A stretch of DNA of 64,000 nt from an uncultured bacterium (GTDB taxonomy: Bacteria > Babelota > Babeliae > Babelales > Vermiphilaceae), in contig OY970172.1 of assembly GCA_963707655.1 (NCBI GenBank), positions 288,001 to 352,000 on the forward strand. The letters run 5' to 3'. A program made the translations under genes and the position numbers. Every line of letters starts with the position of its first letter. Within the stretch, counting starts at the first letter, position 1. Below are positions 2,668 through 37,836 of this stretch, in pieces. The notes beneath the pieces were generated by a model. That model searched no databases. It had not been told where the DNA came from and saw only the letters and a program-made list of their open reading frames with translations.

Positions 2668-2707
2668 GATAATTAACCCTGACCCATTTTTCCGAAAGCT
2701 ACGCGGT

Positions 2708-2842
2708 CTGTTCGCCGGAGCTTTATGCGGAGAGGAACAACCTTCGCTTTTTTCTGCAAAGATTTTTATACCTAATATATTTCATTTGCTGGCGTCAGCC
2801 AGACGAAGCTTGCCGAGCCTGAAGGCACGGATAAGCGAAGAC
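2708..2842. repeat. Two copies of the tRNA-associated bulged palindrome family, immediately 3' of tRNA-His
   Basis: Minus strand CCAGTCTTCGC-TTATCCGTGCCTTCAGGCTCGGCAA-GCTTCGTCTGG begins at the tRNA CCA; a second copy CTCTCCGC-ATAAA-GCTCCGGCG lies at about 2708-2740. Confidence 0.75.
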
Positions 2843-22143: not shown

Positions 22144-22204
22144 GGAAAGAACACAATGAAAAAGGCCCTGATTAAAATAGGGCCTTTTTCATTGTGTTCT
22201 TTCC
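22144..22204. terminator. Long hairpin (26-bp perfect arms), probable terminator
   Basis: GGAAAGAACACAATGAAAAAGGCCCT-9 nt-AGGGCCTTTTTCATTGTGTTCTTTCC. Confidence 0.7.
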
Positions 22205-22245: not shown

Positions 22246-23169
22246 ATGATGAAAAAGATTGTATGTTTTTCTGCGTTTTTGGTTTTTATCCCGACACAGA
22301 GCGCTGAGCTTAACCCGAGAAAAAGAACATTCGCCTCGCTGAGTCAGGAGGATCAGCAGGCGGCTCTTGCCGTCGCGCAAGACTATGCAGATAATCCTTT
22401 TGTCTTGCCGCAACACAATCTATCTGACATTGTTGCCCCTGCGGCTAAAAGACGGGCATTAGTCGGTGCTGCTCCTGATAATCAAGTAATAGATCTTACC
22501 GTTACTTCTCCAAATGAAAATATTCAGGAGATACCTCGTGCTGCATCGCCGATGCAACAGTCAATGGCAGCGGCCCCGCATATTTTTGTGGAAACATTAT
22601 TTTCGCCCCGCGATAACATCAAAGATCATTTAGTAAAGCTCATCCATTCGGAGTTGAAGGGAATTTTAGTAACCTCATATACCTTTACCGACGAAGATAT
22701 CGCCCAAGCACTCATAGAGGCATCTCGCAGAGGGGTGAATGTAGAAGTAATTGTTGATGGGGAGCAGACATGCAAGTTTTTCAATATGTGGAAGATTGTC
22801 AGAAGGATTGCCAACAATCGCATTTCAGTATGGACATATGCTCGAGCGCGTGGCATTATGCATGACAAATTCATTATATTTCAGGATAATGTATATCGTA
22901 CTTTTTCTTCATTGTTGTGGACCGGTTCATTTAATTTGACGCAAAAAGCAAATAAGAATAATAGAGAAAATGTGGTGATTGCGAATGGCGCGGAGGTGAC
23001 GAATGCTTTTCAAAATGAGTTTACTACGTTGAAACGGCAGAGCGATCAAGAGATACCACCTCTGAGTTTCGTTTCGTGTCCACAGTGCAATGAAGATAGA
23101 CTTAAGGCAATTAATGGGGCTATTAAATGTACAAACTGTGGTTTTACACATCCCTATATTTATCAATGA
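22246..23169 (+). CDS. Secreted single-HKD phospholipase D/Nuc-family nuclease with C-terminal zinc ribbon
   Basis: FSP, YTFTD..IAQAL..A.RRGV.V.VIVD, MHDKFIIFQD, TGSFNLT..A...NRENV; CPQC..CTNC; ATG 22246 after an AGGGG RBS. Confidence 0.88.
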   Translation: MMKKIVCFSAFLVFIPTQSAELNPRKRTFASLSQEDQQAALAVAQDYADNPFVLPQHNLSDIVAPAAKRRALVGAAPDNQVIDLTVTSPNENIQEIPRAASPMQQSMAAAPHIFVETLFSPRDNIKDHLVKLIHSELKGILVTSYTFTDEDIAQALIEASRRGVNVEVIVDGEQTCKFFNMWKIVRRIANNRISVWTYARARGIMHDKFIIFQDNVYRTFSSLLWTGSFNLTQKANKNNRENVVIANGAEVTNAFQNEFTTLKRQSDQEIPPLSFVSCPQCNEDRLKAINGAIKCTNCGFTHPYIYQ

Positions 23170-23203
23170 TTATCAACTTCAATAGCTTTTCATCAGGTAT
23201 ATT

Positions 23204-23935
23204 ATGGCTAAAAAACGATTAGATCAATTATTACAAGAATTATTGCCCGCGTATAGTCGCCAGCAGATTCAAAGTTGGATTATGCAAGGCAAGGTTAAAG
23301 TAGGTGGGGCCGTTGTCACCAAGCCGGGCGTTGCAACGGCAGATGATGCAAAAATTGAATATGATATTCAAGAACCAAAATATGTGAGCCGTGCCGGATT
23401 TAAGCTTGAAAAAGCGCTGGATGAATTCAATATTGATGTTGCGGGATTGACCGCATTGGACGCGGGTCTTTCAACTGGCGGCTTTTCTGATTGTTTATTA
23501 CAACGTGGCATTGCAAAAATTTATGGGGTTGATGTTGGCTATGGCCAGGCACATGAAAAAATACGAGCCAATCCACGTGTGCTGGTGATGGAGCGCACCA
23601 ACCTGCGTGATCTGCACGATTTGGGCCAAAAGGTTGATATAGTAACTCTTGATCTCTCATTTATTTCAGTGTTGAAAGTTATGGATGCGGTGAGTGAGCT
23701 ACTCAAAGATAATGGCAAACTGGTAGTATTAATAAAGCCACAATTTGAAGCGCAAAAGCATGAAGTCGGCAAAGGTGGTATTGTGCGCGATGATACAGTG
23801 CGTGAATATGTAGTAGCGCAAGTGACCAATGGCATTGTTGCTCATGGCTATGTATTGCAGGGCCTTGTTGAATCACCCATTACCGGAACTGACGGTAATA
23901 GAGAATTCTTGGCTTATTTCCTCAAGAAACAATAG
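23204..23935 (+). CDS. tlyA: TlyA family rRNA methyltransferase/hemolysin
   Basis: S4 domain; YVSRAGFKLEKAL, DAGLSTGGFSDCLLQ, DVGYGQ, DLSFIS, LIKPQFE, SPITG.DGN.EF. Confidence 0.95.
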   Translation: MAKKRLDQLLQELLPAYSRQQIQSWIMQGKVKVGGAVVTKPGVATADDAKIEYDIQEPKYVSRAGFKLEKALDEFNIDVAGLTALDAGLSTGGFSDCLLQRGIAKIYGVDVGYGQAHEKIRANPRVLVMERTNLRDLHDLGQKVDIVTLDLSFISVLKVMDAVSELLKDNGKLVVLIKPQFEAQKHEVGKGGIVRDDTVREYVVAQVTNGIVAHGYVLQGLVESPITGTDGNREFLAYFLKKQ

Positions 23936-23975
23936 TCAAAAGCTGCTTTTTTTGATACAAATTAAATAACACTAT

Positions 23976-24049
23976 GCACCCGTGCTTTTAGCCGTCGCTG
24001 CTAAAGCTGCTATGGCGTAACAAATCAAAATTTACGGGCCTGCTCCAAG
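23976..24049. repeat. Bulged palindrome family copy upstream of tRNA-Arg(TCG)
   Basis: CCGTCGC-TGCTAAAGCT-GCTATGGCG inside outer CCCGT...ACGGG arms. Confidence 0.6.
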
Positions 24050-24061
24050 GGCTCAGCACAT

Positions 24062-24089
24062 TTGAAATAAAATGCATAAGATATAAGTT
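24062..24089 (+). promoter_or_regulatory. Putative sigma70 promoter of tRNA-Arg(TCG)
   Basis: TTGAAA-16 nt-TAAGTT; similar sequence precedes tRNA-Arg(CCT). Confidence 0.5.
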
Positions 24090-24097
24090 ATTAACAT

Positions 24098-24174
24098 GCG
24101 CCTGTAGCTCAATTGGATAGAGTACCGGACTTCGAATCCGTTGGTTGTAGGTTCGACTCCTACCAGGCGCACCA
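24098..24174 (+). tRNA. tRNA-Arg(TCG)
   Basis: GCGCCTGTAGCTCAATTGGATAGAGTACCGGA-CTTCGAA-TCCGTTGGTTGTAGGTTCGACTCCTACCAGGCGCACCA. Confidence 0.96.
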
Positions 24175-24331
24175 GCCTTCGCCAAGGCTACGGCTGGCGG
24201 GTCAATACTGGAGGAAAAAGAATTAATATCGATAGAAAAAAAGCGTAGGCTGTTCCTCCGTCGCTAAAGCTATGGCGAGACAAGCCGGCCCCCGTGCCGA
24301 CAAAGCTTCTAGCGAAGTCGCACGGCACGCC
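24172..24331. mobile_element. ORF-less (MITE-like) palindrome cluster at the tRNA 3' end, homologous to the left end of the GIY-YIG unit
   Basis: CCAGCCTTCGC-CAAG-GCTACGGCTGG...GAGGAAAAAGA...GATAG...GCGTAGGCTGT aligns by eye with 27553-27647; two more palindromes follow. Confidence 0.65.
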
Positions 24332-24384
24332 AGTTTTTTAATTAATAGAAGTAAGTTATATCCACAAACTCGTCAGGTCTTTTT

Positions 24385-24744
24385 ATGAAAAATCAATTTT
24401 TTTTGATGATAATTTTTTGTTCAATCTCAACTATTGTTCACCCGATGTCCTTAGACAAGGCAAGTGAGGTTAAGTTAATAGAGCAAGTAAAGAAAGAGAA
24501 TGTTGAGAGAAAGTATTGGCCCAGTGATGCAGTTGTAACGTTGGAAGAATTTTATAAGATGTCAGATAATAATGCTCCTAATCCAAGATATTTTGTCAGA
24601 GCTTGCGGGCGTTGGGCAGTAGTTGTTTGCCCCCTGGACGCCGACCCCATGTCACAGGGTAAGCTAGCATTGGCTAGCAGGGGGGCGCAGGGATCTTTTG
24701 ATAAAAAAGAGCTAGAGTCATTTGGTGTTCAGCTACCAGAATAA
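24385..24744 (+). CDS. Secreted hypothetical protein
   Basis: 119 aa; signal MKNQFFLMIIFCSISTIVHP-M. Confidence 0.65.
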   Translation: MKNQFFLMIIFCSISTIVHPMSLDKASEVKLIEQVKKENVERKYWPSDAVVTLEEFYKMSDNNAPNPRYFVRACGRWAVVVCPLDADPMSQGKLALASRGAQGSFDKKELESFGVQLPE

Positions 24745-24802
24745 AATAATGAAAGCGTTCAAATTTAAAAATATTCCATAACAATATCGACGAAGTTTTA
24801 TC

Positions 24803-25534
24803 ATGTTTATGTTAATTATAACCATTATTATGATGGCATCTTTTTTTGTTTTCACATCTGTCTTTACGGCACGTTATTGTTTTGGTTTTTTGGCGCGCAG
24901 ATTTTATACTGTTGGGGAGCTTTCAGCTGAATTTCGTGCTCAGTTTGCTTCACAATTGGCGCAATGTCCGTTGCCGTGTAAGCGATTTATTAGTTCTAAA
25001 ATTTCAGAAATTTGGAAAGGCCCTGATAATCGCCCGATAATTTATGCTGCTGGTGAAATTTATATTAATGAGGATTTTTGTAAACATTTTTCACCTGAAG
25101 TATTTGCTGCGGGATTGGCATATGAGCAAGCGCATCATGATTCCGGTTTTTATATATATGCAGAGTTAATGATGTTTATACTTTTTGTTGGCTGTGTTCC
25201 TTTAATTACCATTTTAAATAGTACATTGCAGTCGATGGTTGCAACCGACCATCCGTGGATGATAGTATCTGCCATTGCTTATATAGTTAATCTCTTGTAT
25301 GTATGGCCATTATTGCAATTTATTATACTAATTGGCTGCGCGATACTTTTAGAATATGCACTGGGCGAATCAGTGGTGAATTTTTATGCAGCAAGAGGCT
25401 ATGATCTTAAGGGTTTATTGAGGTATTTAAAATATGTTGAAAGCCACGTAACAATTGGTGTGAATAGAGCATTCAACATTACTTCAAACCGCAAGCATTG
25501 TGAAAAGCTTTTAGAAGATAAATCTACGCTATAA
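24803..25534 (+). CDS. Membrane protein, degenerate M48-peptidase-like
   Basis: TM helices; EIYINEDF...EVFAAGLAYEQAHH resembles the M48 'AVLAHElgH' helix but lacks the first His. Confidence 0.55.
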   Translation: MFMLIITIIMMASFFVFTSVFTARYCFGFLARRFYTVGELSAEFRAQFASQLAQCPLPCKRFISSKISEIWKGPDNRPIIYAAGEIYINEDFCKHFSPEVFAAGLAYEQAHHDSGFYIYAELMMFILFVGCVPLITILNSTLQSMVATDHPWMIVSAIAYIVNLLYVWPLLQFIILIGCAILLEYALGESVVNFYAARGYDLKGLLRYLKYVESHVTIGVNRAFNITSNRKHCEKLLEDKSTL

Positions 25535-25674
25535 ATTGACTTATAAAGATGCATAATTCACGACAACAAAATCAGATTACACAACTATTGATCTATAAAG
25601 ATTTATTATATTAAGTTAAAATTTGAGAACTAATAGCAAATATCAAGATTTATTAAATAAAATGGATTTTACCT

Positions 25675-25893
25675 ATGGCATGGTACGATATACCCTCGGT
25701 TAAACTCGAAGATATTCAAGAAAACGGTGAAATCGTTGGTGTTCAAATGAGTGCGAAAGACTTTAATCGACTCATTGAAACAATGGAAGACCTTTTAGAC
25801 AACCTAGCTGTTGAAAAAGTAAAAAAAGAAAAAAATCCCAAATTCTATAGCCATGAAGAAATAAAACAGTTAATCGCAAGAAAAAAACGATGA
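25675..25893 (+). CDS. Putative type II antitoxin
   Basis: 72-aa acidic protein (V.MSAKDFNRLIETMEDLLD...YSHEEIK) overlapping the downstream RelE gene via ATGA. Confidence 0.75.
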   Translation: MAWYDIPSVKLEDIQENGEIVGVQMSAKDFNRLIETMEDLLDNLAVEKVKKEKNPKFYSHEEIKQLIARKKR

Positions 25894-26174
25894 CGTTTAT
25901 CAATCATTTAAAAGGCTATCAATTGAGTTATGCTTTAAAAGCTAAAAAATACCTTGAAAAGCTTGATAAAAAAACCGCTTTGCATATTTACAAAAAATTG
26001 GAACTGCTGGTAAGTGGCAACGAAAATCTCGATGTAAAAAAACTAGTTGGCAAAGCAGAACCTCAGTATAGACTGCGCATCGGTGATATTAGAGTGATAT
26101 ATGAAGTCAGGGAACACGAAGTAATTGTGTACGTTATTGAAATTGGGCATAGAAAAGAAATATATAGAGACTAA
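25890..26174 (+). CDS. RelE/ParE family type II toxin
   Basis: AKKYLEKLDK, KKLVG, YRLRIGDIRVIYEV, VIEIGHRKEIYR. Confidence 0.9.
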   Translation: MTFINHLKGYQLSYALKAKKYLEKLDKKTALHIYKKLELLVSGNENLDVKKLVGKAEPQYRLRIGDIRVIYEVREHEVIVYVIEIGHRKEIYRD

Positions 26175-26176
26175 TT

Positions 26177-26338
26177 ATGAATAAAAAAAAGAAGATTATA
26201 AAACCAACTTTTTACTACAATGACAAAAAAGAACCGGTCCTCGTGCGACTTTCTAAAGAAGATTTCGATTATTTTTATAAAGAACTTACCAAACTATCAA
26301 ACGCTGCAAAAAAAATAGTAACTCGTAAAAAGGGTTAA
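26177..26338 (+). CDS. Small 53-aa protein resembling the antitoxin N-terminal region (not in ORF track)
   Basis: MNKKKKIIKPTFYYNDKKEPVLVRLSKEDFDYFYKELTKLSNAAKKIVTRKKG; starts 2 nt after the toxin stop. Confidence 0.55.
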   Translation: MNKKKKIIKPTFYYNDKKEPVLVRLSKEDFDYFYKELTKLSNAAKKIVTRKKG

Positions 26339-26420
26339 TTTATACGCAGCCTGCTACTGGCTCTACTCTTCATGCGTAAATTCGCACAAGTTTTGGCCGG
26401 GATTAAACAATCCGTGCTTT

Positions 26421-27236
26421 TCAGTTTATCTCCAAAATCAACTGCCCGGCTTCTATAGCATAGCCACCGACCTTAATGCCATTGCTCGGATCAACATAAA
26501 TTTGCCCTACTTTGCCAAGCATGTGCCCCTGTTCAACTATGATAGGTGTCTCAAGCGCATAATGCTTGTTAAGATAAGCTCCAAGCGCACCTGCTGCTAC
26601 CCCTGTAACGGGGTCTTCATTTACGCCCGTTGAAGGATTAAATTGTCGCGCATTATAAAAATGATTATTTATTTTTACAAAAGCGTATATGCCTGTCGGA
26701 ACCAGCTCTTTTATTAATTCAAAATTTGGCCTCAAGCTCCATAGCGCTGCTATATCTTTTAACTCTACCAACAATTTTGGTGTTCCCGTAGAAACACGTA
26801 GAGGGGTATTAATTATGAATTCAGAAGCAATACCAAGCATTTGAGCAATGTCATGAGTATCATACTCTTGTTGATAAAATATCGGATTTGCTTGCTCCAT
26901 TTCTATCATACCGTCATCTTTTTTTGAGACGGATAAGATACCTGCTAGAGTTTCTTGCGTTAACGTTTTTACCGATTCATCATGATCCAGCAAATGAAAC
27001 AATGCTATAGTAGCGTGCCCACAAAGATTCATTTCTTTTTTTGGGGTAAAAAACCTTACTTTGACAGTGGCAATAGCTGATTTTTGGATAAAAGCACATT
27101 CTGAATAACCAGTTTTCTGGACAATACTCATCATCTGTTCATCTGTTAAACTATCAGCATCAAATACAATTCCTACAGGATTTCCCTGGGAACTATCGTT
27201 AGTAAATGATTTTAAAACATGTACTTTTATTTGCAT
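26421..27236 (-). CDS. PhzF family epimerase-like protein
   Basis: SFT...GNPVG, YSECAF, VRFFTP..EMNLCGHATIA, STG, EDPVTGVAAGALG, EQG; ATG at 27236. Confidence 0.92.
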   Translation of the reverse strand: MQIKVHVLKSFTNDSSQGNPVGIVFDADSLTDEQMMSIVQKTGYSECAFIQKSAIATVKVRFFTPKKEMNLCGHATIALFHLLDHDESVKTLTQETLAGILSVSKKDDGMIEMEQANPIFYQQEYDTHDIAQMLGIASEFIINTPLRVSTGTPKLLVELKDIAALWSLRPNFELIKELVPTGIYAFVKINNHFYNARQFNPSTGVNEDPVTGVAAGALGAYLNKHYALETPIIVEQGHMLGKVGQIYVDPSNGIKVGGYAIEAGQLILEIN

Positions 27237-27530
27237 ATTCTTGATCTGTTCTTGAAAGCAAGGGGTTTCGCTACTGAGACAATAACAATAAATCAAACTT
27301 ATAAAAAAATACCTTGCAGGAAGGTTGAGGCTAAAGTATACCAAGATATCCCCCAAAAGTAATTTTTAAATTATCTTTTCCCTATTAGGACAAGGCATAT
27401 TGCAGGAGAAGATGTCCTCATATCTATCAATACCATAAAGAAGAGGGGGTCTAAAAGACTTAGGTTTACCAAGTTTGGGATGCAAGCAGTAGTCGCTTAA
27501 TAGCATACATTGTGCTATTTTCTATAAAAG

Positions 27531-27562
27531 AGTTGCTGAAATAGACCGATAGGGCGCACCAG
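27531..27562 (+). repeat. Direct repeat R1 copy 1 (ends in a tRNA-Arg 3'-end copy GGGCGCACCA)
   Basis: AGTTGCTGAAATAGACCGATAGGGCGCACCAG; 31/32 identical to 30537-30568. Confidence 0.9.
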
Positions 27563-28061
27563 CCTACGCTCCAAGAGAGCTCCGGCTGGCGGTGCCAACA
27601 CTTGAGGAAAAAGAGCCACGATTGATAGCAAGAAGCGTAGGCTGTCCGCCGTAACTTGCCAAGCCGGAAGGCATGGATAAGTGCAGGCTGGACTGGCTGG
27701 CCACTCATGAAGCAAAATAGTTGCAGTCTTTATCTCACATACTTCAGTTTTCGAAAAATGGCATGTATTTTGTCTATATAATTCAATCTATTAATCATCC
27801 AGACCAAGTATATGTTGGAAAAACAACGAATCTAAAGAAGCGCTTATCTGATCATAACTGCGGAACTACTGCGCACACAGAAAAATATAAGCCTTGGAAA
27901 TTAGTAGTATATATTTGTTTTAATGATCAATTAAAAGCAATTGAATTTGAGAAATACCTTAAATCCGGCTCAGGAAGAGAGTTTAGGAATAAAAAGATTG
28001 CTATAGCTTGTGAGAGCGAAGACAGGCAAGCTTCGTCTGACTTACGTCAACAGCTCCCCTC
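27563..28061 (+). mobile_element. Candidate GIY-YIG-carrying, palindrome-flanked insertion unit
   Basis: Lies between R1 and R2, which are 3 nt apart at 30537-30601; palindromes at 27559-27589, 27641-27693 and ~28001-28050 flank the GIY-YIG ORF. Confidence 0.6.
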
Positions 28062-28086
28062 TTACCCATTCTTTGCATCTTCATAA
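27763..28086 (+). CDS. Small GIY-YIG endonuclease
   Basis: MYFVYIIQS...YVGKTTNLKKRLSDHN.G...HT.KYKPWKLV.Y..F....KA..FEKYLKSGSGR; ATG at 27763; C-terminus reads into the flanking palindrome. Confidence 0.92.
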   Translation: MYFVYIIQSINHPDQVYVGKTTNLKKRLSDHNCGTTAHTEKYKPWKLVVYICFNDQLKAIEFEKYLKSGSGREFRNKKIAIACESEDRQASSDLRQQLPSYPFFASS

Positions 28087-28091
28087 ATCCT
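28062..28091 (+). repeat. Direct repeat R2 copy 1
   Basis: TTACCCATTCTTTGCATCTTCATAAATCCT vs TTACCCATTCTTTCAATCTTGATAAATCCT at 30572-30601 (27/30). Confidence 0.85.
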
Positions 28092-28141
28092 TGGTATATC
28101 TACTAAGATTTTTTATAGGAATCTAACCTTTAGGAAGAGCT

Positions 28142-30043
28142 ATGAAGATTATTATTTTGATCAGCATTCTACTACAATCAGTAGCTATACAGGCGGTGCA
28201 TCCCAATAGAGAGTTAACAACAAACGGGGATACATCAACGCGAAATTACGGCATATCACACAATAGTTTTGATATGAATCGTGCTCAATATATAAAAAAC
28301 ATTGCCGGCATTAGTAATCATTCTTCTTTCACGCCCTCTCACATTACATCCGGAACATCAGCCTACACGATGTTGTATGAACCGCACAAATGCGCATCGT
28401 GGCAGGTAAATGACTACTGGAATGCGGTCGTTTGGGCATTCGGGCTTAAAGCACCAGTAGACAAAAATCACTACATTCCGTTCGGGCTACGCGCGTATGG
28501 CTATACCAATGATTCGCAGATTTTGTATATTCATGACGACAATATAATCCGTGTCATGAACAATGTGAAACTCTATGATTACGATAATTTCTGGCATTTT
28601 ATCAGTAGGTTTAATTTGTATGAAGATACCCTTCAGCGAATACTTAACGATAGCACGCAACGCACATTGCTTTCTCAAAAAGCGTTGCAGAAAATGCGGC
28701 AACAATGCGCGCGCATTACGGAAAAACAACTGGCAAAAGAGCGTGAGCAACGGCAGCGTGATCATGAAAAATCGGTACGTACATACTTTCAGAAAGAGTT
28801 GCCGGATACACAAGATTCAGTTAATGAGCAACAAGAATTGCATGAAATTGCCCATACATATAATTTGCATAACAAAAATCATTATGAAACTCGTCTGGCT
28901 GCGCTTGAAGATGTGGTAAGTAATAGCAAATATACCCATGAATCATACACTCTCGATGATGATGTGATGAGCTTGCTTTCGCAGTCAGAGTGTGATTCCA
29001 AACAGTATAAAACTAATTATGGCAATCAATTGCAGCAAGTCATTCACCGTGAATGCATCGATATCATCGCGCAGACAGCGCAGCTCTCTGCGCATTCTCC
29101 TCTGTATGATTATAAAAAATCATTAGTTGATTTTACTGATTCAGCCCGTTCATATAATCAAGAGGGCATATCTGGTAAGGCGATGCAGATTAATAATTTT
29201 TGTTACGCATTACTCGATTATGGCTCGGCCATTGTTGAGGGCATTGCCTGCGGCGTTATTGGCGCAGCTAAAGACATGATTAATCATCCAGTTCAAACAG
29301 CGTTGTGCGTTGTTGCCGGTGAATATGTGTTGGCCTATCAATTACTTAAAGTTACTACCAACCTTGTCTCTATTGGCATAAACTGTGCTTTCGATAAAGA
29401 AGCTGGATCGCAACAATGGCATGATTATATTGAGCCGATAACGAGTGTGATCAGCGCTATCAGTAATAAAGAGTTGACTCTGCGAGACGGCGTTAAAGGA
29501 GCCGTTGCCCTTGGCACCGGTATGTATGCGCAAGGTAAGATGCTTAAAGGGCTGAACTCTTTTTATAAGACAACACAAGCAAAAGCTCTTGAGTTCGCTA
29601 AAAATAATCCGTTGGCAACTCCTGCTGAGTATATGACTACTCCCGAGGGAGGATTGTTTAAAGCAATAAAAAAAGCAGCACATAATCAATCGGCTTATAA
29701 TGAAAAGACATCAATAAAAGGTTTTAACGGCCTTGCTAATAAAATAAGTATGAAGGGATTGATAAAGAAAAAGCGATTACCCACAAAAGGGAAAATTCGC
29801 TATGTTCCACCAAAAAAATTACATGTATCAGAGGGATTGCCAAGGGTTCCAATGCCAGATGGCTCAGAAGGAATTGTAGATAGATTTGGCAATATATGGA
29901 CACAAGGTGAAAGCCGAACCAAGGGTCAACCATTTGAATGGGATGTTCAATTGTCTGAACAAGGCAAAAGACAACTAGGATGGATGACTCGCGATAATAC
30001 GCATCTTAATGTTAGTTTAGACGGAAGGGTTACACACAAATGA
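28142..30043 (+). CDS. Secreted polymorphic toxin with C-terminal Ntox17-like predicted RNase domain
   Basis: Signal peptide; helical stalk; hydrophobic pre-toxin-like segment; C-terminus LPTKGKIRYVPPK...DRFGNIW..G.SRT.GQPFEWDVQLS..G..QLGW..RD..HLNVSLDGRVTHK matches my recollection of the Ntox17 domain. Confidence 0.8.
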   Translation: MKIIILISILLQSVAIQAVHPNRELTTNGDTSTRNYGISHNSFDMNRAQYIKNIAGISNHSSFTPSHITSGTSAYTMLYEPHKCASWQVNDYWNAVVWAFGLKAPVDKNHYIPFGLRAYGYTNDSQILYIHDDNIIRVMNNVKLYDYDNFWHFISRFNLYEDTLQRILNDSTQRTLLSQKALQKMRQQCARITEKQLAKEREQRQRDHEKSVRTYFQKELPDTQDSVNEQQELHEIAHTYNLHNKNHYETRLAALEDVVSNSKYTHESYTLDDDVMSLLSQSECDSKQYKTNYGNQLQQVIHRECIDIIAQTAQLSAHSPLYDYKKSLVDFTDSARSYNQEGISGKAMQINNFCYALLDYGSAIVEGIACGVIGAAKDMINHPVQTALCVVAGEYVLAYQLLKVTTNLVSIGINCAFDKEAGSQQWHDYIEPITSVISAISNKELTLRDGVKGAVALGTGMYAQGKMLKGLNSFYKTTQAKALEFAKNNPLATPAEYMTTPEGGLFKAIKKAAHNQSAYNEKTSIKGFNGLANKISMKGLIKKKRLPTKGKIRYVPPKKLHVSEGLPRVPMPDGSEGIVDRFGNIWTQGESRTKGQPFEWDVQLSEQGKRQLGWMTRDNTHLNVSLDGRVTHK

Positions 30044-30435
30044 ATTGCGAACCATACATCATCATACATTGCATTGCCTGGTTTGAAGAAAGTGTTGAAG
30101 ACAGATTATTAACTATTTTAAATGTATTTGTAAAAAATAATTGGCCTGCAGCATGTGTTCTTTTGAAGTCAAGTAAGCCATATTGGAAAATAGAAGGGAA
30201 GCAGGCAATCATATATGGTCTATACAACTTTGAAATGATTACTGTTAATGACTTTATTAAAAAAATAGATGTGCTATGGCACTATACTGAATCAATGTCG
30301 TATAGTGTTCCCTATAATTACAGCTATCAAGACGAAAGCGCTATATGGGACAAAGAAGATGAATCAAAAGAGATATTCTTTTTGCCAAGTGTTAGCTGGG
30401 CACACGTGTACACTGCGCAACGAAAACACAAATAA
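30040..30435 (+). CDS. Putative cognate immunity protein
   Basis: 131 aa; ATGA-coupled directly downstream of the toxin. Confidence 0.7.
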   Translation: MNCEPYIIIHCIAWFEESVEDRLLTILNVFVKNNWPAACVLLKSSKPYWKIEGKQAIIYGLYNFEMITVNDFIKKIDVLWHYTESMSYSVPYNYSYQDESAIWDKEDESKEIFFLPSVSWAHVYTAQRKHK

Positions 30436-30536
30436 CATACAAATGAAAGCTTTTTATTATCAGATATTGGAATATAAAATGTTATTTTCAAAAACCATTT
30501 TCTTGACCTGGCTGAGAACGCCAACTTCAAAAGAAA

Positions 30537-30601
30537 AGTTGCTGAAATAGACCGATAGGGTGCACCAGTCTTTACCCATTCTTTCAATCTTGATAAATCC
30601 T
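30537..30601 (+). repeat. R1 copy 2 + R2 copy 2 (contiguous 'empty site')
   Basis: AGTTGCTGAAATAGACCGATAGGGTGCACCAG-TCT-TTACCCATTCTTTCAATCTTGATAAATCCT. Confidence 0.85.
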
Positions 30602-30627
30602 GTTTTTTTAATTAACTATTTTTCCTC

Positions 30628-31133
30628 TCATCTCAAGCATCCATTGTGCCTGCTGGCCATAATCTTTATTAGAGCTATTTTTTTGATTTCCTCTAGCCGT
30701 TGTTGAAATTGGTCATCAAAAACTTTAGCGGCTAGTTTACAATAATCACGAAATTCTCTGTGCTTTTCGCGTTGCACCGCTTCGATTAGAATGTCTTGAA
30801 TCTCTTTTATTTGAGTTTTGCTCAAGGGGCATTGTTTGAGCAATTGAGCAAGGCTTGCTTTTATGAAGCCAGAGCGAAAACAATACGGGTTAGCTTTTAA
30901 ATAAGTAATAGCAGTGTCGATGGCAGATGAATCATGTTTTTTTAGCAATGTTAAGCCATTTCTAAGCCGCCAGGAAAAGCTAAAAGATCATATCTTTCAT
31001 GAAACTCTTGTGTAGCATTGTGCCAGGCATCAGGATCTTCTTTTTTATGCTTAAACGTTGCGTCGATAGCTTTTTTAAGATTAGTAATAGTTTGTGCATT
31101 GTTTGTAATAAGAGCTATTCGATTTTTGTTCAT
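30628..31133 (-). pseudogene. Frameshifted hypothetical gene (ORFs 30951-31133 and 30628-30948)
   Basis: Adding one A in GAAATGGC joins ...AFPGGLE-NGLTLLKKHD... into a single reading frame. Confidence 0.6.
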
Positions 31134-31195
31134 ACCATCCTCAGCTTTTAGTGAAAAAATTCATATTCGATCTTATCATCTTATGTTTTCAGGCA

Positions 31196-31228
31196 ATCCG
31201 CCGTTGCTAAAGCTATGGCAGACGTAGC
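31196..31228. repeat. Bulged palindrome family copy
   Basis: TCCGCCGTTGC-TAAA-GCTATGGCAGAC. Confidence 0.7.
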
Positions 31229-31230
31229 TG

Positions 31231-32850
31231 CTATGAATCTTGCGATGGGCGATCGCTTTTGAATGGTATATCAAATCTTTTAAAAAGTAATTCTGCAGGA
31301 ATTTCAGGGGTGTATACTTCTTCTGGGTTTATAGCAGTATAAGGATGGTCAAGCAAAGCCTCTTTAAGCATTTTATCGAGGTCATTTTGACTGAACTCTA
31401 TCTCTAAAGCGATTTTCTTTTCCGCATGAGCATTATATCCTGATAATGTTACTACGCATCCTGTGCTCCCCGGCTTTGGATTTTTATGTAAAACCAGGTG
31501 ACAATTTTTGAGCTGGGTTCTTTTTTCTTGCAGCTTGAAAATGAGTGAATCTATATAAATCATGATTGATAAAACCGGCCCCAGTGGCATGAATACATAG
31601 CATATCTGCTGAAATGTTAACTCAGATGCGTCAATCTCGGCGATATGTAGCTTTCTCATTTTATCCATAATAATAATCTTTGGCAGAGAAAGATTATTAT
31701 TTTTAAAAATAAGGGGAAAGGGAATGGTAGGGCTATAAATAAAGATCCCTTTAGTATTATCAGAAATGGTCAATGGTTTTTCGCGTGTTTTGCTTTGCGT
31801 TTTAGAGATAACAACATAATCTTTTTCAATCAGACTTTTATCTAAATTTGCGATAGAAAACCATTGCGTGTTGGGTAATCTTATCTGAGGCATGTTTAAA
31901 AGAGGATTAAAATTGTTACTCATGAAATTTGCGGTGGTAAAAATAGCATAATAATTGGGTGTTGATCGGCTCTCTTTAGACAATTCGGCAAATAAATAGT
32001 CAAAATCTATTGATTGATCCAACTTCATGGCGCTCTGGGTGCCATAATTGCTCGTGCCAAAAAAAACAATGGGAAAGGAAAAGGTAGTTTGATATATACT
32101 GTTTTTGTCATTTTCAAATTGCTTCTTATCTTGCTCTTCAAATGCTTTAATTTTATTTTCACTCGCAGCATAACAAGACATACAGATCAATATTTTTGTA
32201 CGTAGTTTATACTGCAGAAAATGAGTAAATGTTTTAAATTCTTCGATAGTTGAATCGGCTATGATGTCGCGCGCGCCATGGCCAACCAGATAAACTATCC
32301 AGTCTATGACATTTGATGCATCTTCTTGTTTAGAGAAAAAGAAATTTGAAATAGTTTGTTCAAAAGAAGGGTAGATCTTTGATAGGGATGCTACGGCATT
32401 TTCGCTCACCTCGTCCCAAGTAACTTTTTTCAAATTGCCTAGTTTTATACCGTGCGCAGCGGCCGTCTCTTCCCAGTTTTTATCATACATGCAATACAAG
32501 CCATCGATTTCTCTTATAATGAAATGCTCTTTCATTATGGCGACATGTTTGCTGGCTTGCAGTTTTTTAAATACATGAATTGCTAATGATTTGGAAAACA
32601 AAATGGGGGCCGAGGGGCTGCGTAGAATAGTAAAGTATAGTTGTTTAGTAAGAGGAATAGGCTTAAGTTTTTCCGGGATTTCTTTGTTTTGACTCATGGC
32701 ATATTCTTTGTTCGTTCGATCGAGCATTATGATAATACCCTGTGTTACTTTGGTGGTTCGTATTTCTTCAATTTCAGCCGCTTTATTGCTGAACTCGAAA
32801 ATGAATATGATGAGTGTTAGCGATAGCCATGGTATACAATTGTTATTCAT
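31231..32850 (-). CDS. Secreted hypothetical protein, possible clan CD (caspase-fold) cysteine peptidase
   Basis: Signal peptide; WIVYLVGHG...KILICMSCY His-Cys dyad pattern. Confidence 0.6.
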   Translation of the reverse strand: MNNNCIPWLSLTLIIFIFEFSNKAAEIEEIRTTKVTQGIIIMLDRTNKEYAMSQNKEIPEKLKPIPLTKQLYFTILRSPSAPILFSKSLAIHVFKKLQASKHVAIMKEHFIIREIDGLYCMYDKNWEETAAAHGIKLGNLKKVTWDEVSENAVASLSKIYPSFEQTISNFFFSKQEDASNVIDWIVYLVGHGARDIIADSTIEEFKTFTHFLQYKLRTKILICMSCYAASENKIKAFEEQDKKQFENDKNSIYQTTFSFPIVFFGTSNYGTQSAMKLDQSIDFDYLFAELSKESRSTPNYYAIFTTANFMSNNFNPLLNMPQIRLPNTQWFSIANLDKSLIEKDYVVISKTQSKTREKPLTISDNTKGIFIYSPTIPFPLIFKNNNLSLPKIIIMDKMRKLHIAEIDASELTFQQICYVFMPLGPVLSIMIYIDSLIFKLQEKRTQLKNCHLVLHKNPKPGSTGCVVTLSGYNAHAEKKIALEIEFSQNDLDKMLKEALLDHPYTAINPEEVYTPEIPAELLFKRFDIPFKSDRPSQDS

Positions 32851-33098
32851 ATGAACCCCATAAAAAAGTAGATTGCTCCTTCTTTTTAACCTAGCATTGA
32901 CGAAGAGACTAAAGATAGAATATCAATCTATTATTTTAATGAAAAACCATATGTTATTGTATGTTCCTTTTAAGTGATGCAAAAATGCATCAAATGAGGT
33001 AAAATCAATTATGAGCATCGCTTATTCTTATTTTCGTGATAAAGAGACGCGAGCCGATCTGTAGAATAAAGAACAATTCATGAAAAGGGCTCAGATAG

Positions 33099-33602
33099 AT
33101 GGATTATGAAATCATAGATTATGTTGATGATAATGATTGCGTAGTTGGTTCAATACTGCGTTCTGAATATAAGACCGTCTGTCCTCCCTATCATATCCGC
33201 GGTGTTCAGGGTTTTATTAGAAATGATGAAGGCAAACTCTGGATTCCTCGCCGCACATTTACCAAAAAACTTTTGCCTGGGGGGTTGGATTCTGCTGTTG
33301 GTGGTTTTGTGCAAGCAGGTGAAACGTATGATCAAGCCTTTGCGCGAGAACTGAAAGAAGAATTAAACCTTATAGCAGAAAAGATTACGGTACAGAAAAT
33401 TGCGACATTGACCCCTTTTCAAGGGCTCCCTGCTTTTTTGCACGTCTATGAAATTCAGATGAATGAAGCCCCCGATTATAACACAGAAGATTTCTGCGAA
33501 TATGCATGGATGACTCCCGATGAAATTCTTGCGCATCTTGCCCAGGGAGCATTGGCCAAGAAAGTGTTATCGCATGTCAAAACACTGTTTCCTGACCGCT
33601 GA
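33099..33602 (+). CDS. NUDIX hydrolase (YfcD/Idi-like)
   Basis: DYVDDND, RRT..KKLLPG.LD, GGFVQAGETYDQAFARELKEEL Nudix box. Confidence 0.9.
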   Translation: MDYEIIDYVDDNDCVVGSILRSEYKTVCPPYHIRGVQGFIRNDEGKLWIPRRTFTKKLLPGGLDSAVGGFVQAGETYDQAFARELKEELNLIAEKITVQKIATLTPFQGLPAFLHVYEIQMNEAPDYNTEDFCEYAWMTPDEILAHLAQGALAKKVLSHVKTLFPDR

Positions 33603-33611
33603 TCACTATGC

Positions 33612-34205
33612 TTAGTAAGAGTATCCTATGCCCGCTCTGAAATCAAAGCCGCCGACATCATGTTTTTGCCCGCGTATCTTTTCGCGCGGAAACAAGTATC
33701 TGAATGCGCCAGTTATATCAAGGTCACCACACGTCTGATAGTTAAAGCCGAGCTCTAATTCTCCAATACCTTTAGTGCGCTTTACTCGCCCTAAATAGCT
33801 CTTTTCTTTAATGAATATCGCCCCGGCACCTAATGAGGCGTACCCTTGCAGCCCCTCATAGCAAGAATCAAACAATCGGCGTAAATAAAAGGTGAGGGGT
33901 ATTTCTCGTAAGCAGGTGCATTGTTTATAAAAGGTTGTTTTGCCTCGCGCGCGCCAATAACTTAACTTTGCACCGATGCCCCATAGCTCTTTAGGGTAAT
34001 AGCATGCATCCGCGGTTATCACGTTTTGTATCCCATGGCCATACACTTCTTTAAATATATGATCATGTTTAAAAACATAGCCGGTGGTGAAGGCGACTGA
34101 AGAGAATGAGCAGTTTTCCTCCTCTTCTTGGGCAGCTAAACAGAATGATGATGTGCAGAGAGCGGATACAGTAAAGAGGAAAATTGTAAAGATGTTTTTT
34201 TTCAT
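33612..34205 (-). CDS. Outer-membrane beta-barrel protein
   Basis: Signal peptide; amphipathic strands; YASLGAG; C-terminal FRAGIGYSY beta-signal. Confidence 0.7.
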   Translation of the reverse strand: MKKNIFTIFLFTVSALCTSSFCLAAQEEEENCSFSSVAFTTGYVFKHDHIFKEVYGHGIQNVITADACYYPKELWGIGAKLSYWRARGKTTFYKQCTCLREIPLTFYLRRLFDSCYEGLQGYASLGAGAIFIKEKSYLGRVKRTKGIGELELGFNYQTCGDLDITGAFRYLFPREKIRGQKHDVGGFDFRAGIGYSY

Positions 34206-34213
34206 TTTCGTTC

Positions 34214-35962
34214 CTAGTTTTGATTAAGTGATGCTAGCCACATTCTTTCATAGGCGGTGTTAAGAGCACCGTCAGGATATATTGCCATGACTCTATAATC
34301 TTTATAGTAATTGGGGGTCGCAAATGACCAGGTGTTGGTACCTTGTGAATCGGTGAAGGTGCCGCCGAGTAAAACATCACCGCCAAAAATATATACTTTT
34401 GATGGGTTTTGCGCCGTGCCGGATAGAATGGCCCCTTGTGAGGTTCTATTGACATAGTGAAGAGTAGTTGGTGTCAACGCCGGCCCTCCTATGTAGCGGG
34501 CGATTTGCGCAATAGTGTATGCTGAATTTGAGCCGACAGCAACAATTCTGCCATTTTGCTGCAGCGCACCGCTAAAGGCAACTGCTCCGGGTGGCGCTTC
34601 CACAATGCCTGCTGTGCCGAATGAGGTATCAAGGGTGCCATTGCTGTTATAGCGTATTATTTGAAATGTTGGACCCTGGTCACTCGGTAGACCAACAAGA
34701 ATGATTTTTCCGTCAGGCTGTAAGAATGCATCGTTCATAATGCCTGTGGGGCCAGTAATTACGCCGCCACCAAAAGTAGTATCAAGAGAACCATCAGTAT
34801 TAAATCGTGCTAGCATAATGCTCAGGCCCAATGTGTTGCCTGCTACAATTATTTTTCCGTTCGGCTGCAGAAGTAAGCCTGACCATAAACCTGCTGGAGC
34901 TGCCCCCGCAATAAAGCTAGGATCAAGAGTGCCATCAGTGTTATAGCGTACCAAGGTTAAATCAAAAGTGCTGCTATTGCCGGAAACAATGATTTTACCA
35001 TCGCTTTGGATTTGTACGGCTTGGGCAAATTCCTCAGGTCCACTTTCAAATACGATATCAATGCTGCCATTGCTGTTATAGCGCACAACTTCAAATAATT
35101 CGGTATCGTTATTGGTGCCGACAAAGAGAATTTTGCTATCTGTTTGTAGCGTAAGCATGCTGCCAACGCCGACGGGTCCAACTACAGAACCACCGCTAAA
35201 TGTTGTATCAATCGTGCCATTGGCGGTATACCGAATCATTTGAAAATTTTCAGATAAGGAATCTGTTCCACCTATGATAATTTTTTCATCAGGTTGTATG
35301 ATGATGGTGAAGCCAAATATTCCCGTTGTATCGGTAACAATACCGGCGAAACCAAAAGATGAATCAAGCGTTCCGTCGATATTGTATCGTATTGTTACTG
35401 TTGCCCCGTTATCATTCGGTCCAACGGTCACAATTTTTCCATCGGGTTGAATGGCAGATGCAAATGCAGAAAAGGCGCTTGGGGGAGTAGCTACAAATCC
35501 TGCTCCATTGCCAAATGATGGATCAAGGCTTCCGCTCTGTAATTGTGAATATGCTTGATTCGCAGAAGCAGTAAGTAGTATTTGTGTGGCTGAAAAAGCC
35601 CCATTTCTGAGCAAAAATTCTATCATAAATTTAGCATTCACGGGATTGCTGATCGCCGCTCGTAATGGGGTAACGCCAGCAGTATTAGGTGTATTTACAA
35701 TTGTTGCAAAAGCAGGGGCATTGACGTTATATAATTGCGTAGTGAAATAGGATTGGCTGTTTTGCGCAGCGAGCATGAGCATGGTGTTTCCGTCCGTATC
35801 AGTATTGGTGATATTGGCAGAATCACTTGCATACGTGACGAGTGTTGGTGTCAGATCGCTTGTTACGATATCGTTGATAATATTAGGCGGCAGCGGTGCG
35901 CTTTCAGATGTTGCATGGGCGAATACTAAGCAGCACAGAATGTTTTTATACCATTGCTTCAT
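34214..35962 (-). CDS. Secreted protein with N-terminal ankyrin repeats and delta-60 repeats
   Basis: GNTMLMLAA and GVTPLRAA; about 7 repeats of IQPDGKI...G...RYN.DG.LD.SFG. Confidence 0.85.
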   Translation of the reverse strand: MKQWYKNILCCLVFAHATSESAPLPPNIINDIVTSDLTPTLVTYASDSANITNTDTDGNTMLMLAAQNSQSYFTTQLYNVNAPAFATIVNTPNTAGVTPLRAAISNPVNAKFMIEFLLRNGAFSATQILLTASANQAYSQLQSGSLDPSFGNGAGFVATPPSAFSAFASAIQPDGKIVTVGPNDNGATVTIRYNIDGTLDSSFGFAGIVTDTTGIFGFTIIIQPDEKIIIGGTDSLSENFQMIRYTANGTIDTTFSGGSVVGPVGVGSMLTLQTDSKILFVGTNNDTELFEVVRYNSNGSIDIVFESGPEEFAQAVQIQSDGKIIVSGNSSTFDLTLVRYNTDGTLDPSFIAGAAPAGLWSGLLLQPNGKIIVAGNTLGLSIMLARFNTDGSLDTTFGGGVITGPTGIMNDAFLQPDGKIILVGLPSDQGPTFQIIRYNSNGTLDTSFGTAGIVEAPPGAVAFSGALQQNGRIVAVGSNSAYTIAQIARYIGGPALTPTTLHYVNRTSQGAILSGTAQNPSKVYIFGGDVLLGGTFTDSQGTNTWSFATPNYYKDYRVMAIYPDGALNTAYERMWLASLNQN

Positions 35963-36167
35963 TCAAAATTCCTTCTTTCTTTAACGGTCGGGATTTTAAA
36001 ACTTCCGTTAATCTATCGCATCTCTTTATGCATTTGCAACATATTTAATTTCTGAACTTGTTTTATGGCCAAAGAATGAGACAAGAAGAAAATGAGAATT
36101 TTTTTAGCGTGATACCAGAAAAATAGTGTCAAAAAAACGAATTAAGGTACAATAATTAATATTTTTG

Positions 36168-36265
36168 GCGCCCGTAGCTTCCTCCTATGCTTATCCATGC
36201 CCGGTGCTCTTTGAAGGAGCACTGTTTTCGGCTTGGCAAGCTACGGCGGACAGGACGCAACGGGA
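36168..36265. repeat. Nested palindrome family copy upstream of tRNA-Arg(CCT), starting with a 12-nt match to the tRNA 5' end
   Basis: GCGCCCGTAGCT-TCCTCCTATGC-TTATCCATGC-[GTGCTC..GAGCAC]-CGGCTTGGCAA-GCTACGGCGGACAGG..ACGGG; inverted homolog of 27641-27693. Confidence 0.8.
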
Positions 36266-36273
36266 TCCTCGCT

Positions 36274-36301
36274 TTGAAATAAAATGAACGAGAGATAAAA
36301 T
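36274..36301 (+). promoter_or_regulatory. Putative sigma70 promoter of tRNA-Arg(CCT)
   Basis: TTGAAA-16 nt-TAAAAT. Confidence 0.55.
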
Positions 36302-36310
36302 GATTAGTAT

Positions 36311-36387
36311 GCGCCCGTAGCTCAGATGGATAGAGCGATAGATTCCTAATCTGTAGGCCATGGGTTCGAATCCCGTCGGGCGCACCA
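36311..36387 (+). tRNA. tRNA-Arg(CCT)
   Basis: GCGCCCGTAGCTCAGATGGATAGAGCGATAGA-TTCCTAA-TCTGTAGGCCATGGGTTCGAATCCCGTCGGGCGCACCA. Confidence 0.96.
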
Positions 36388-36494
36388 CTCTTCGTCTATT
36401 CGGGCCATCAGCCCCTGTATCGGCGAAGCATTCTCCCTTATAATTTTCTGAAGTTATTGAGGTTATTCATGTTTATTGTGTTATTAAAAACATA

Positions 36495-36821
36495 TTGAGT
36501 ATAATTTTTTTCATCTTTGCACTATTAATTATTCTAGGCATATACTTTTTGAAAAAAAGTGATGAAAGAAAACAAATTTTACAGCAGGCGTACAGCGACG
36601 CCACTCAAACATGTAGCGTGAGACTTGTGTCTGTAGGTCCAGAAAAAATTAAAATCATCAAAACTTTTCGAAATTATGTGGATTGGGATTTGACACTTGC
36701 TAAGCAAAAATTGCTAGACACGCCGTTACCTACCGTTGTTGTTTGGAAAATGCCATTATCATTGGGAAAGCAGCTTCAGGAAGATTTGCTAAAGTACGAT
36801 ACTATTATTGAAATATTGTAG
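36495..36821 (+). CDS. Membrane-anchored protein with ribosomal L7/L12 C-terminal-like domain
   Basis: N-terminal TM helix; VRLVSVGPEKIKIIKTFRNY..WDL..AKQ....P.V. Confidence 0.65.
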   Translation: MSIIFFIFALLIILGIYFLKKSDERKQILQQAYSDATQTCSVRLVSVGPEKIKIIKTFRNYVDWDLTLAKQKLLDTPLPTVVVWKMPLSLGKQLQEDLLKYDTIIEIL

Positions 36822-36931
36822 ATCAGTATTCACAGTCTTCATGCAAATTCCGTCTTTTCTCTGTTCATAAATTCTTGATTATAACCCCACTATATCACTA
36901 TCATATACACCGTGTAGAGCTGAAATGACTC

Positions 36932-36983
36932 ATTGTTAAAAGGAGTTGATATGCCTTATAAAGTTGGTAAGAAGACAAAAACA
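36932..36983 (+). repeat. 52-bp perfect direct repeat, copy 1 (RBS + first 11 codons of a small gene)
   Basis: ATTGTTAAAAGGAGTTGATATGCCTTATAAAGTTGGTAAGAAGACAAAAACA identical to 37617-37668. Confidence 0.92.
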
Positions 36984-37077
36984 GGTTGTGTTGGTAGTAA
37001 TTGGGTAAAATCTTAATGTTCTTGTTCAACGGTTACAATGTACATTACAACCGTTGATTTTTTATTTATGGAAAATC

Positions 37078-37575
37078 ATGATCAAAAAAATAATATTTTT
37101 CATAGCATTTGTGTTATTGGCCCTCGTTTATTCTTATCACTATGCATTTGGGCAGAGAGCGGATAACGAGACACTTATAAAAAACATTATGATGTATCCC
37201 ATGCCCCACATCCTTGCAAGATGTCAAAAGGATTATAATTATACTGATGAGGATATGATTATTCTCGAAAAAGAACTTAAACGATATCTCATTCTCTCAT
37301 TCGTTAATGATGAAGCGGATTTAGATACAGGGATGTATAGTGAAGATGTTGATAATCTTTGGCACACATTCATTCTATTTACCAATGAATATGCCGCATT
37401 TTGCAATAAACATTTTAATCGATTCATGCATCACATCCCGGAAATTGATACACAATCTACTCCGGAAGAATTAGAAGAAGATCGTAAAGACTTTCAAGCA
37501 TTTATAAAAGGCTATCAAGAAGTTTTTAAGGAGGAAATCCACCCTGTATGGTATCTTGGTATTCGCGAGGGGTAA
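37078..37575 (+). CDS. Glycine-rich-domain-containing-protein (GRDP/DUF1399)-like hypothetical protein
   Basis: ELKRYLIL...S.DVD.LWH.FIL.T.EY..FC...F.RF.HH.P pattern; N-terminal signal/TM. Confidence 0.65.
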   Translation: MIKKIIFFIAFVLLALVYSYHYAFGQRADNETLIKNIMMYPMPHILARCQKDYNYTDEDMIILEKELKRYLILSFVNDEADLDTGMYSEDVDNLWHTFILFTNEYAAFCNKHFNRFMHHIPEIDTQSTPEELEEDRKDFQAFIKGYQEVFKEEIHPVWYLGIREG

Positions 37576-37616
37576 TGAACGATCGATAAAATTACGAATG
37601 AGTCATGAGACGACTG

Positions 37617-37788: not shown

Positions 37789-37836
37789 TGGTGCAGGACG
37801 CACTCACTTTGAAAAAGGCTGTTGTTTATTACGAAT

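Follow-up and report, generated by a model that had tools for sequence, protein, structure and literature searches.

Hairpin modules and a small GIY-YIG nuclease gene at tRNA CCA ends in a Vermiphilaceae genome

In a 64,000-nucleotide (nt) stretch of DNA from an uncultured Vermiphilaceae bacterium of the phylum Babelota (contig OY970172.1, positions 288,001 to 352,000; hereafter the window), a gene for a small GIY-YIG endonuclease lies among bulged palindromes between two short repeats, R1 and R2, and further downstream the same two repeats lie almost side by side. Is the longer arrangement a mobile element, and is the shorter one its empty target site? A first-pass annotation made from the sequence alone had proposed both, and its description of the layout holds: R1 and R2 are 3-4 nt apart at 30537-30601 and enclose 500 bp at 27531-28091. 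The R1 copies at 27531 and 30537 are 87% identical over 46 nt, and the R2 copies at 28062 and 30572 are 90% identical over 30 nt. The two local copies listed for each repeat are correct; across the genome we count seven copies of R1 and six of R2, and a 633-amino-acid toxin with an Ntox17 tip and its putative immunity gene had gone unmentioned. We think it rather probable that two mobile systems are superimposed here, a hairpin and nuclease element of tRNA 3′ ends and a set of serine-integrase islands at tRNA-Arg genes. The nearby "empty site" is an integration boundary of a virus-like kind, probably scarred by a deletion, and not an untouched target. The source genome (G000) is a single contig (C1) of 1.09 Mb, 88.6% complete, of which the window is G000:C1:288001-352000; bare coordinates below are window positions, and those marked "genome" refer to G000:C1.

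Hairpin modules at the CCA ends of tRNA genes

The sequence ahead of the nuclease gene belongs to a family of repeats that we call modules. A module is a 110-170-nt inverted doublet of bulged hairpins, similar in form to a REPIN, and begins at the base after the CCA; in some cases an SLX1-like GIY-YIG gene comes after it. In the copy between R1 and R2, hairpin unit A (27559..27589, plus strand) has the CCA as its outer stem, and the triplet after the CCA pairs with the triplet before the closing TGG. An AT-rich linker separates unit A from an extra arm, B0, which is the complement of the first arm, and from unit B, an inverted copy of unit A with its own minus-strand CCA (27635..27693, minus strand, for B0 and unit B together). 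The likeness that the first-pass annotation saw between the left end of the unit and the DNA after tRNA-Arg(TCG) is significant (27553-27652 against 24166-24261, 78% over 102 nt, E 6e-13), and a gene-less module occupies 24175..24330 (plus strand) at the CCA of that tRNA. Another gene-less module lies at the CCA of tRNA-His (2693..2842, minus strand), and a degenerate module start at that of tRNA-Arg(CCT) (36388..36430, plus strand). The right palindrome (28005..28054, plus strand) corresponds to the 3′ half of a module type that is older and gene-less, found whole at genome positions 1006374, 1009339 and 1012192 and behind tRNA-Tyr. At this site the left half of an older module has been replaced by a module plus gene.

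The triplet after the CCA occurs in 13 kinds. The near arm holds its complement in 73 of 114 modules (11.7 in shuffles) and the far arm B0 in 17 of 20 (4.3 in shuffles), counts that related copies inflate; where the near arm is not complementary to the first arm, B0 is so in 5 of 6 cases. Kin and paralogs do not count as independent observations, and the shuffle and Fisher tests therefore overstate. A nested long-hairpin pairing, A1 with B2 and A2 with B1, was also considered and rejected, being supported in only 6 and 4 of 20 modules.

We used BLAST clustering for the genome census because a minimal hairpin pattern was not discriminating (26 matches in the genome, 11-18 in shuffles). A strict module pattern was applied separately at tRNA CCA ends, where it found modules at 12 of the 38 tRNAs of G000, compared with 21 of 5000 random CCA positions; by eye the number is about 20 of 38. 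The abundant gene-less copies that had been predicted are therefore present. Altogether, 25 of 30 module-like clusters in G000 lie at tRNA ends or at copies of tRNA ends in attachment (att) sites. Solo units or modules away from called tRNA 3′ ends were observed at genome positions 285897, 480228, 622942, 644819 and 966190 and at window positions 31197-31223 and 36200-36257, the last upstream of the degenerate module start. No tmRNA was called in G000 by ARAGORN, and an Rfam scan of window positions 23000-38000 returned tRNAs and nothing else. Two perfect inverted repeats lie elsewhere in the window, at 22144-22204 (26 bp) and 60330-60375 (23 bp).

Module movement was examined by comparing 29 tRNAs between G000 and a congener, G001, with three further genomes (G193, G172 and G076); two of three Met-tRNA comparisons paired non-orthologous tRNAs and were left out. 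At tRNA-Thr(TGT), G001 carries a 95-bp module insertion exactly at the CCA, without duplication and between flanks that are 85% identical. The site is empty in G000, G193, G172 and G076, and we read the module as a gain because the three further genomes lack it. This is the filled and empty polymorphism between congeners that had been predicted for CCA ends. Less clean module differences between G000 and G001 were observed at Cys, Gly(GCC), Leu(TAG) and one Met tRNA. Recent spread within G000 is seen at Ser(GGA), Ser(GCT), Phe and Lys(CTT): each of these tRNAs has a module that is 88-91% identical to a paralog but has no BLAST match to the module at the orthologous G001 tRNA, and the nuclease's own leader is 76-78% identical to the four. 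As judged from these alignments, modules move, since four of them, each at another tRNA, share 88-91% identity, and a congener holds a clean 95-bp insertion at the CCA.

The nuclease gene and its linkage to tRNA genes

The open reading frame (ORF) from the ATG at 27763 encodes one domain, a GIY-YIG domain (PF01541, E 1.5e-17), which bears out the earlier assignment of a minimal endonuclease gene. It is the only small GIY-YIG gene in G000, the other PF01541 match being a UvrC-like N-terminus. The gene occupies 27763..28006 on the plus strand. Compared with orthologs at metagenome loci L167 and L168 and in a Logan contig, the window copy has an extra A near 27991, so that the 27-residue tail up to 28086 is a read-through past the normal stop at 28004-28006 and the true length is 80 amino acids. 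Across 90 sequences the catalytic residues Y5, Y17, G19 and E63 are present in 100% and R27 and H31 in 98%, and crude dN/dS is 0.15-0.21. On this comparative evidence the nuclease is intact and under purifying selection. The fold was predicted from an alignment with a local confidence (pLDDT) of 94, and its best matches are HIGLE and Slx1 (template-modelling score 0.71-0.75, E 8e-5 to 1e-3). With the catalytic Y-Y-G-R-H-E set and the sequence matches, the model describes a minimal Slx1-type domain. Neither a Y1/HUH transposase (PF01797) nor a reverse transcriptase (PF00078) was found in G000, 88.6% complete; by the latter result the element is not of the Penelope-like or retroelement kind.

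Homologs of the nuclease were found in 156 of 251 genomes of the phylum. We examined 89 nuclease loci, the 29 best matches and 60 hand-picked among the next ones, out of about 330. A tRNA or tmRNA gene on the same strand lies no more than 600 bp upstream in 67 of the 89, an att-like copy of a tRNA end in 14, and 8 were left unassigned by the script. In 60 of the 67 loci that follow a tRNA or tmRNA, a module arm starts at position +1. The proposed tie between palindromes at tRNA CCA ends and a small GIY-YIG gene thus extends well beyond this locus. The description of the unit as palindrome-flanked is right mostly for one side: among 86 loci with full flanks, the arm motif lies upstream in 72 and downstream in 13, and the unit is therefore not symmetrically flanked.

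Outside the phylum, 25 of 34 loci have a tRNA or tmRNA within about 420 bp, counted by eye. Among the loci listed, the CCA-anchored hairpin layout is found with the closer homologs (51% identity and above), and many distant ones lie in duplicated tRNA fragments. Eight distant homologs (L013, L014, L015, L020, L026, L027, L030 and L031) end at or inside a tRNA 5′ end within such fragments, a second architecture. By eye, small GIY-YIG genes also lie inside the 5′ end of apparent 16S rRNA genes in Yanofskybacteria (L028:3001-3258 and L029:3001-3260).

Gene-less modules at tRNA-Arg(TCG/CCT) were found in 14 of 21 nuclease-positive genomes, where the pattern missed three cases seen by eye, compared with 2 of 9 nuclease-negative ones; kin among these genomes are not independent. 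We made quick trees of the nuclease from 80 alignment columns, with 80 labelled rows and 10 rows without a clear site left out. On these trees tRNA class changes 20 times, compared with 44.9 in shuffles (minimum 40), and host family changes 39 times, compared with 49.9 (minimum 44). Nuclease clades thus appear to follow tRNA class more than host family, with switches where sister rows sit at different tRNAs.

R1, R2 and the serine-integrase islands

R1 and R2 had been taken for the two halves of the element's target, and neither is. Five of the seven R1 copies lie in an array that follows an island at tRNA-Arg(TCT). This island has a gene for a large serine recombinase, with Resolvase, Recombinase and Zn-ribbon domains, and the gene extends into the 3′ end of the tRNA. 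Every R1 encodes the same short peptide start on the minus strand. At L078 and at metagenome locus L166 the integrase reading frame continues at its C-terminal end into that peptide, and the arm that is joined to the integrase ends in the target tRNA 3′ end, as the att arm of a large serine recombinase does. Since in L166 and L078 this arm is continuous with the C-terminus of the integrase, we identify R1 as an att arm and the detached C-terminal tail of the serine integrase of tRNA-Arg islands. It follows that the native, undisturbed junction is R1 with integrase, not R1 with R2.

In the window, R1 copy 1 (27531..27561, plus strand) is an attR-type arm that ends in a copy of the tRNA-Arg 3′ end with CCA. 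The corresponding detached tail (27466..27561, minus strand) has 31 codons, the first being a Trp encoded by the reverse of CCA, and a second tail (30460..30567, minus strand) includes R1 copy 2 (30537-30567, plus strand). The tRNA-Arg(TCG) gene (24098..24174, plus strand) is likely the attL end of an integrase-less island at 24175-27561, extending on to 30567. The statement that no integrase was recognised in the window stands in part: there is no integrase match among the 14 ORFs scanned between 22 and 33 kb, a scan for other integrase types that did not extend to the rest of the window, and the cognate serine integrase as query matches only two places in the genome, both outside the window. 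The R1 pattern had no matches in viral contigs.

Some further observations concern these islands. Behind tRNA-Arg(TCG), 24175-27561 carries a ParE/RelB-like toxin-antitoxin pair and a PhzF-family gene with an 88% identical paralog near the second array. Around position 1077 of L175, R1 abuts the first 60 codons, at the N-terminal end, of an integrase whose remainder is deleted. A different repeat is present at L092 and L142, where the tRNA-Arg 3′ end is duplicated in tandem with an internal palindrome.

R2 (28062..28141, plus strand) is the conserved leader of toxin genes and is non-coding. A promoter scan found no sigma-70 promoter in it. The candidate explanation that R2 is a decayed integrase end was rejected: with hidden Markov models (HMMs) from 49 integrase-side arms, the L166 control gave E 1.6e-17 and three R2 copies E above 0.9. 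The leader precedes the polymorphic toxin with its Ntox17 tip (28142..30043, plus strand) and the putative immunity gene, inferred from its position (30040..30435, plus strand). Four paralogs of the toxin with other tips lie at genome positions 1006585-1017355, where four toxin-immunity pairs with a common N-terminus and differing tips are spaced between the R1 copies of the array. Genus g10 repeats this layout at a tRNA-Glu island, where toxin cassettes have a module and a broken nuclease gene lying between them.

Arrays that resemble integrons and consist of polymorphic toxin-immunity cassettes were observed at G000:C1:1006342-1017448 (L055 and L056), at 27531-30567 of the window and at L176:6352-12138. 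Their cassettes share an N-terminus, exchange tips that include Ntox17 and Colicin D-like domains, and each end in a spare serine-integrase tail and a tRNA-end copy. We found no literature linking "polymorphic toxin" with "Dependentiae".

Competing explanations and known systems

The two superimposed systems could work as follows. The nuclease would recognise the extruded hairpin, in single-stranded or cruciform DNA, and would nick beside the CCA; comparable activities are cleavage by Ssn a short way upstream of its own hairpin and cleavage of branched DNA by SLX1. Being hydrolytic, a GIY-YIG enzyme has no means of its own to rejoin strands. Host recombination would then use the common tRNA 3′ end as homology, which would give an exact CCA junction and a ragged far end, and thus stacking, replacement of older modules, one-sided flanks and fidelity to a tRNA class. 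Gene-less modules would be mobilised in trans. Serine-integrase islands would deposit R1, an attR copy of the tRNA end, between toxin-immunity cassettes in tandem, and each CCA copy would be a further landing site for the module. In the window, at one R1, the left half of an older gene-less module may have given way to a module with nuclease, and at the next R1 a module and the following cassette may have been almost wholly deleted, leaving R1 beside a stub of R2.

A bolder form of this account is possible, and we hold it only tentatively. The locus would be a self-propagating element of about 400 bp, whose 80-residue nuclease nicks a CCA-closed hairpin and homes itself and gene-less doublets into nearly any tRNA or tmRNA 3′ end, with sub-clades by tRNA class; nicks at att CCA copies may also promote toxin-cassette shuffling in integron-like Dependentiae arrays. 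The nuclease as mover of modules is inferred by analogy with SsnA. If it does move them, the element would rank with the smallest known autonomous mobile elements and would show a second way, next to that of RAYT, in which short palindromic repeats spread, with the universal CCA end as a safe harbour. It would also give a function to the abundant tiny "GIY-YIG family" genes of uncultured bacteria and provide an 80-residue candidate hairpin-specific nuclease, distinct from Ssn, with a substrate defined to the base.

Several points weigh against a moving nuclease element. In genera g50 and g29 we found no clean presence/absence pair of the nuclease-bearing unit between unique flanks, and at the compared nuclease-bearing site the flanks in G193, G172 and G076 are rearranged. 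Between L167, L168 and L171 the differences comprise entire cassettes, and for these, recombination at R1, by the integrase or between homologous sequences, is an equally good explanation. The site fidelity in the tree also fits vertical descent at a few tRNA loci, and modules could come to lie beside att copies passively, through insertion of an island between a tRNA and the module that follows it. Five of the 30 module-like clusters in G000 lie away from tRNA ends and att copies, and 2 of 9 nuclease-negative genomes have gene-less modules at tRNA-Arg(TCG/CCT). Compared with shuffles, the window leader has only a moderate advantage in folding (z -1.55 as DNA, -2.57 as RNA). Finally, absence of a transposase is not secure because the genome is 88.6% complete.

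Of the alternatives, the one that survives best, though we regard it as rather unlikely, makes the module a transcribed tRNA-trailer structure (an attenuator or processing signal) or an Ssn-like restriction tag, spread by gene conversion between tRNA ends and by integrase cassette shuffling, with the nuclease a regulated or domesticated passenger. The first arm does have two mutually exclusive partners, near arm and B0, which is switch-like, and, read in the direction of transcription, the module always precedes the gene. Individual nuclease clades keep to a single tRNA class over many families, and SsnA, in the parts of PMC11893778 used here, acts on incoming single-stranded DNA and is not a demonstrated transposase. 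However, gene conversion alone poorly explains exact CCA junctions at unrelated tRNAs, tmRNA and att copies, or rapid replacement; most module copies have no gene to regulate, and many relatives have neither module nor nuclease.

The proposal that R1 and R2 bound a discrete autonomous unit, with 30537-30601 as its pre-insertion target, turns on the short junction (30568..30601, plus strand), which consists of 4 module-like bases and a truncated, degenerate R2. We compared 17 R1 copies (7 genomic, 10 metagenomic). R2 lies downstream in 10 of the 17, with fillings of 6, 35, 97, 130, 134, 134, 338, 502, 502 and 502 nt. Logan contigs of four runs add further joints, of which those at 82% likeness may stem from related organisms or paralogous cassettes; one has 8 nt between R1 and R2 (X4), another 23 nt and the first 8 module bases, and X2 is a further R1-R2 junction. 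The unit-less junctions X4 and X2, from other populations, speak for the proposal, as does L168, a close ortholog of the short site (96.5% identical to 29368-30571 over 1.2 kb) in which a full unit follows the same R1. However, L168 continues with a whole further toxin cassette and not with the window's downstream gene, and L169 and L171, orthologous to the left R1, hold a different module, in L171 with a decayed, distant nuclease as well. The three loci are evidence of turnover at the CCA, in which module movement and cassette exchange are not separable. Nor is the right palindrome of the same module type as the left one.

The short junctions themselves differ from one another, and their first bases are those of a module. 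At 30568 stands the triplet with which modules most often start (30 of 114 modules), X4 also opens with module bases, and L170 and X3 have kept a module's first 8 nt. In the clean pair at Thr(TGT), it is the module and not the target that supplies the triplet following the CCA. Because the short forms differ, start like modules and carry the module's triplet, and because the R2 stub at 30572 is degenerate and cut short, we read the junction at 30537-30601 as a deletion remnant, with good though incomplete confidence; a deletion product at this place is among the outcomes that the first-pass annotation had itself listed as refuting its proposal. Together with R1's native partnership with the integrase, this leaves the discrete unit between R1 and R2 improbable. 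Assembly artefact or chance repetition, for which only the 1-nt homopolymer difference from orthologs speaks, can be set aside as negligible, since the unit, the toxin cassette and both R1 contexts recur in independent contigs, which span the GIY-YIG/R2 part and, up to 30566, the tip of the toxin and differ little from the window there, and since the family spans most genomes of the phylum.

The closest known system is Ssn. The parts of Chenal et al. 2025 (PMC11893778) used here describe a single-domain GIY-YIG gene beside a repeated, oriented NTS/SRM hairpin, with gene-less hairpins scattered over the genome; SsnA cuts single-stranded DNA a few bases upstream of its hairpin, and the authors liken Ssn units to IS200/IS605 transposases with REPs. 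The idea of a RAYT/REP analog with a different nuclease, which the first-pass annotation put forward as new, is therefore already in print in that form; the word "tRNA" has 0 occurrences in the main text of PMC11893778. Both systems have a single-domain GIY-YIG protein of about 80-95 amino acids (here 80, with one PF01541) beside an oriented hairpin repeat. Here, in contrast, repeats number tens and not hundreds, they are anchored at tRNA or tmRNA CCA ends, and the module flanks the gene mainly on a single side. A search of G000 limited to the NTS core, and not extended to the degenerate SRM pattern in full, gave 0 matches at up to 3 mismatches. As stand-ins for the Ssn clade we used two GIY-YIG proteins, neither of them SsnA itself, that are NTS-adjacent and come from 80 of 133 viral loci; they score 23-34 bits on the family HMM, compared with 124-148 for members, and form a long separate branch. 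Indirectly, this places our nuclease outside the SsnA/cd10448 clade.

REP/REPIN repeats with RAYT (REPtrons; PMC3733652, as far as the portion used here describes them) share the short, imperfect or bulged palindromes, the inverted doublets and the many extragenic, non-autonomous copies that far outnumber the enzyme gene. They differ in that the gene here encodes a GIY-YIG protein, no Y1/HUH transposase being found in G000, that position at the tRNA end is strict, and that no GTAG/CGTC tag is seen at the module start. Miniature inverted-repeat elements and class II insertion sequences, which have terminal inverted repeats and target-site duplications, do not fit: target duplication is confined to a 1-nt ambiguity in the Thr(TGT) pair, and the right ends show no conservation. 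Free-standing GIY-YIG homing endonucleases such as T4 SegB are also encoded in tRNA regions and spread by host recombination; unlike them, our protein has no DNA-binding C-terminal domain and comes with a hairpin doublet and gene-less copies, and its lineage is that of Slx1 and not of I-TevI (Foldseek E 0.32 to I-TevI). For prokaryotic Slx1-family proteins, to which the best sequence and fold matches point, Dunin-Horkawicz 2006 (PMC1564403) proposed roles in repair or restriction-modification; in the part of that paper used here, repeats and tRNA-gene linkage are not mentioned. Tandem cassettes separated by att copies, with R1 as the att arm, recall SCC/Ccr-like islands with large serine recombinases, whereas here the att site splits the integrase gene, the cassettes are polymorphic toxin-immunity pairs, and hairpin modules sit at each CCA copy.

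We found no published description of the tRNA-anchored family in a search whose scope excluded subscription papers, and the Ssn supplementary tables could list members; the family is apparently widespread and undescribed. What is already known is the pairing of a small GIY-YIG gene with a repeated hairpin, likened to RAYT/REP, in Ssn; what differs here is the protein group, the repeat and the strict position at the tRNA end.

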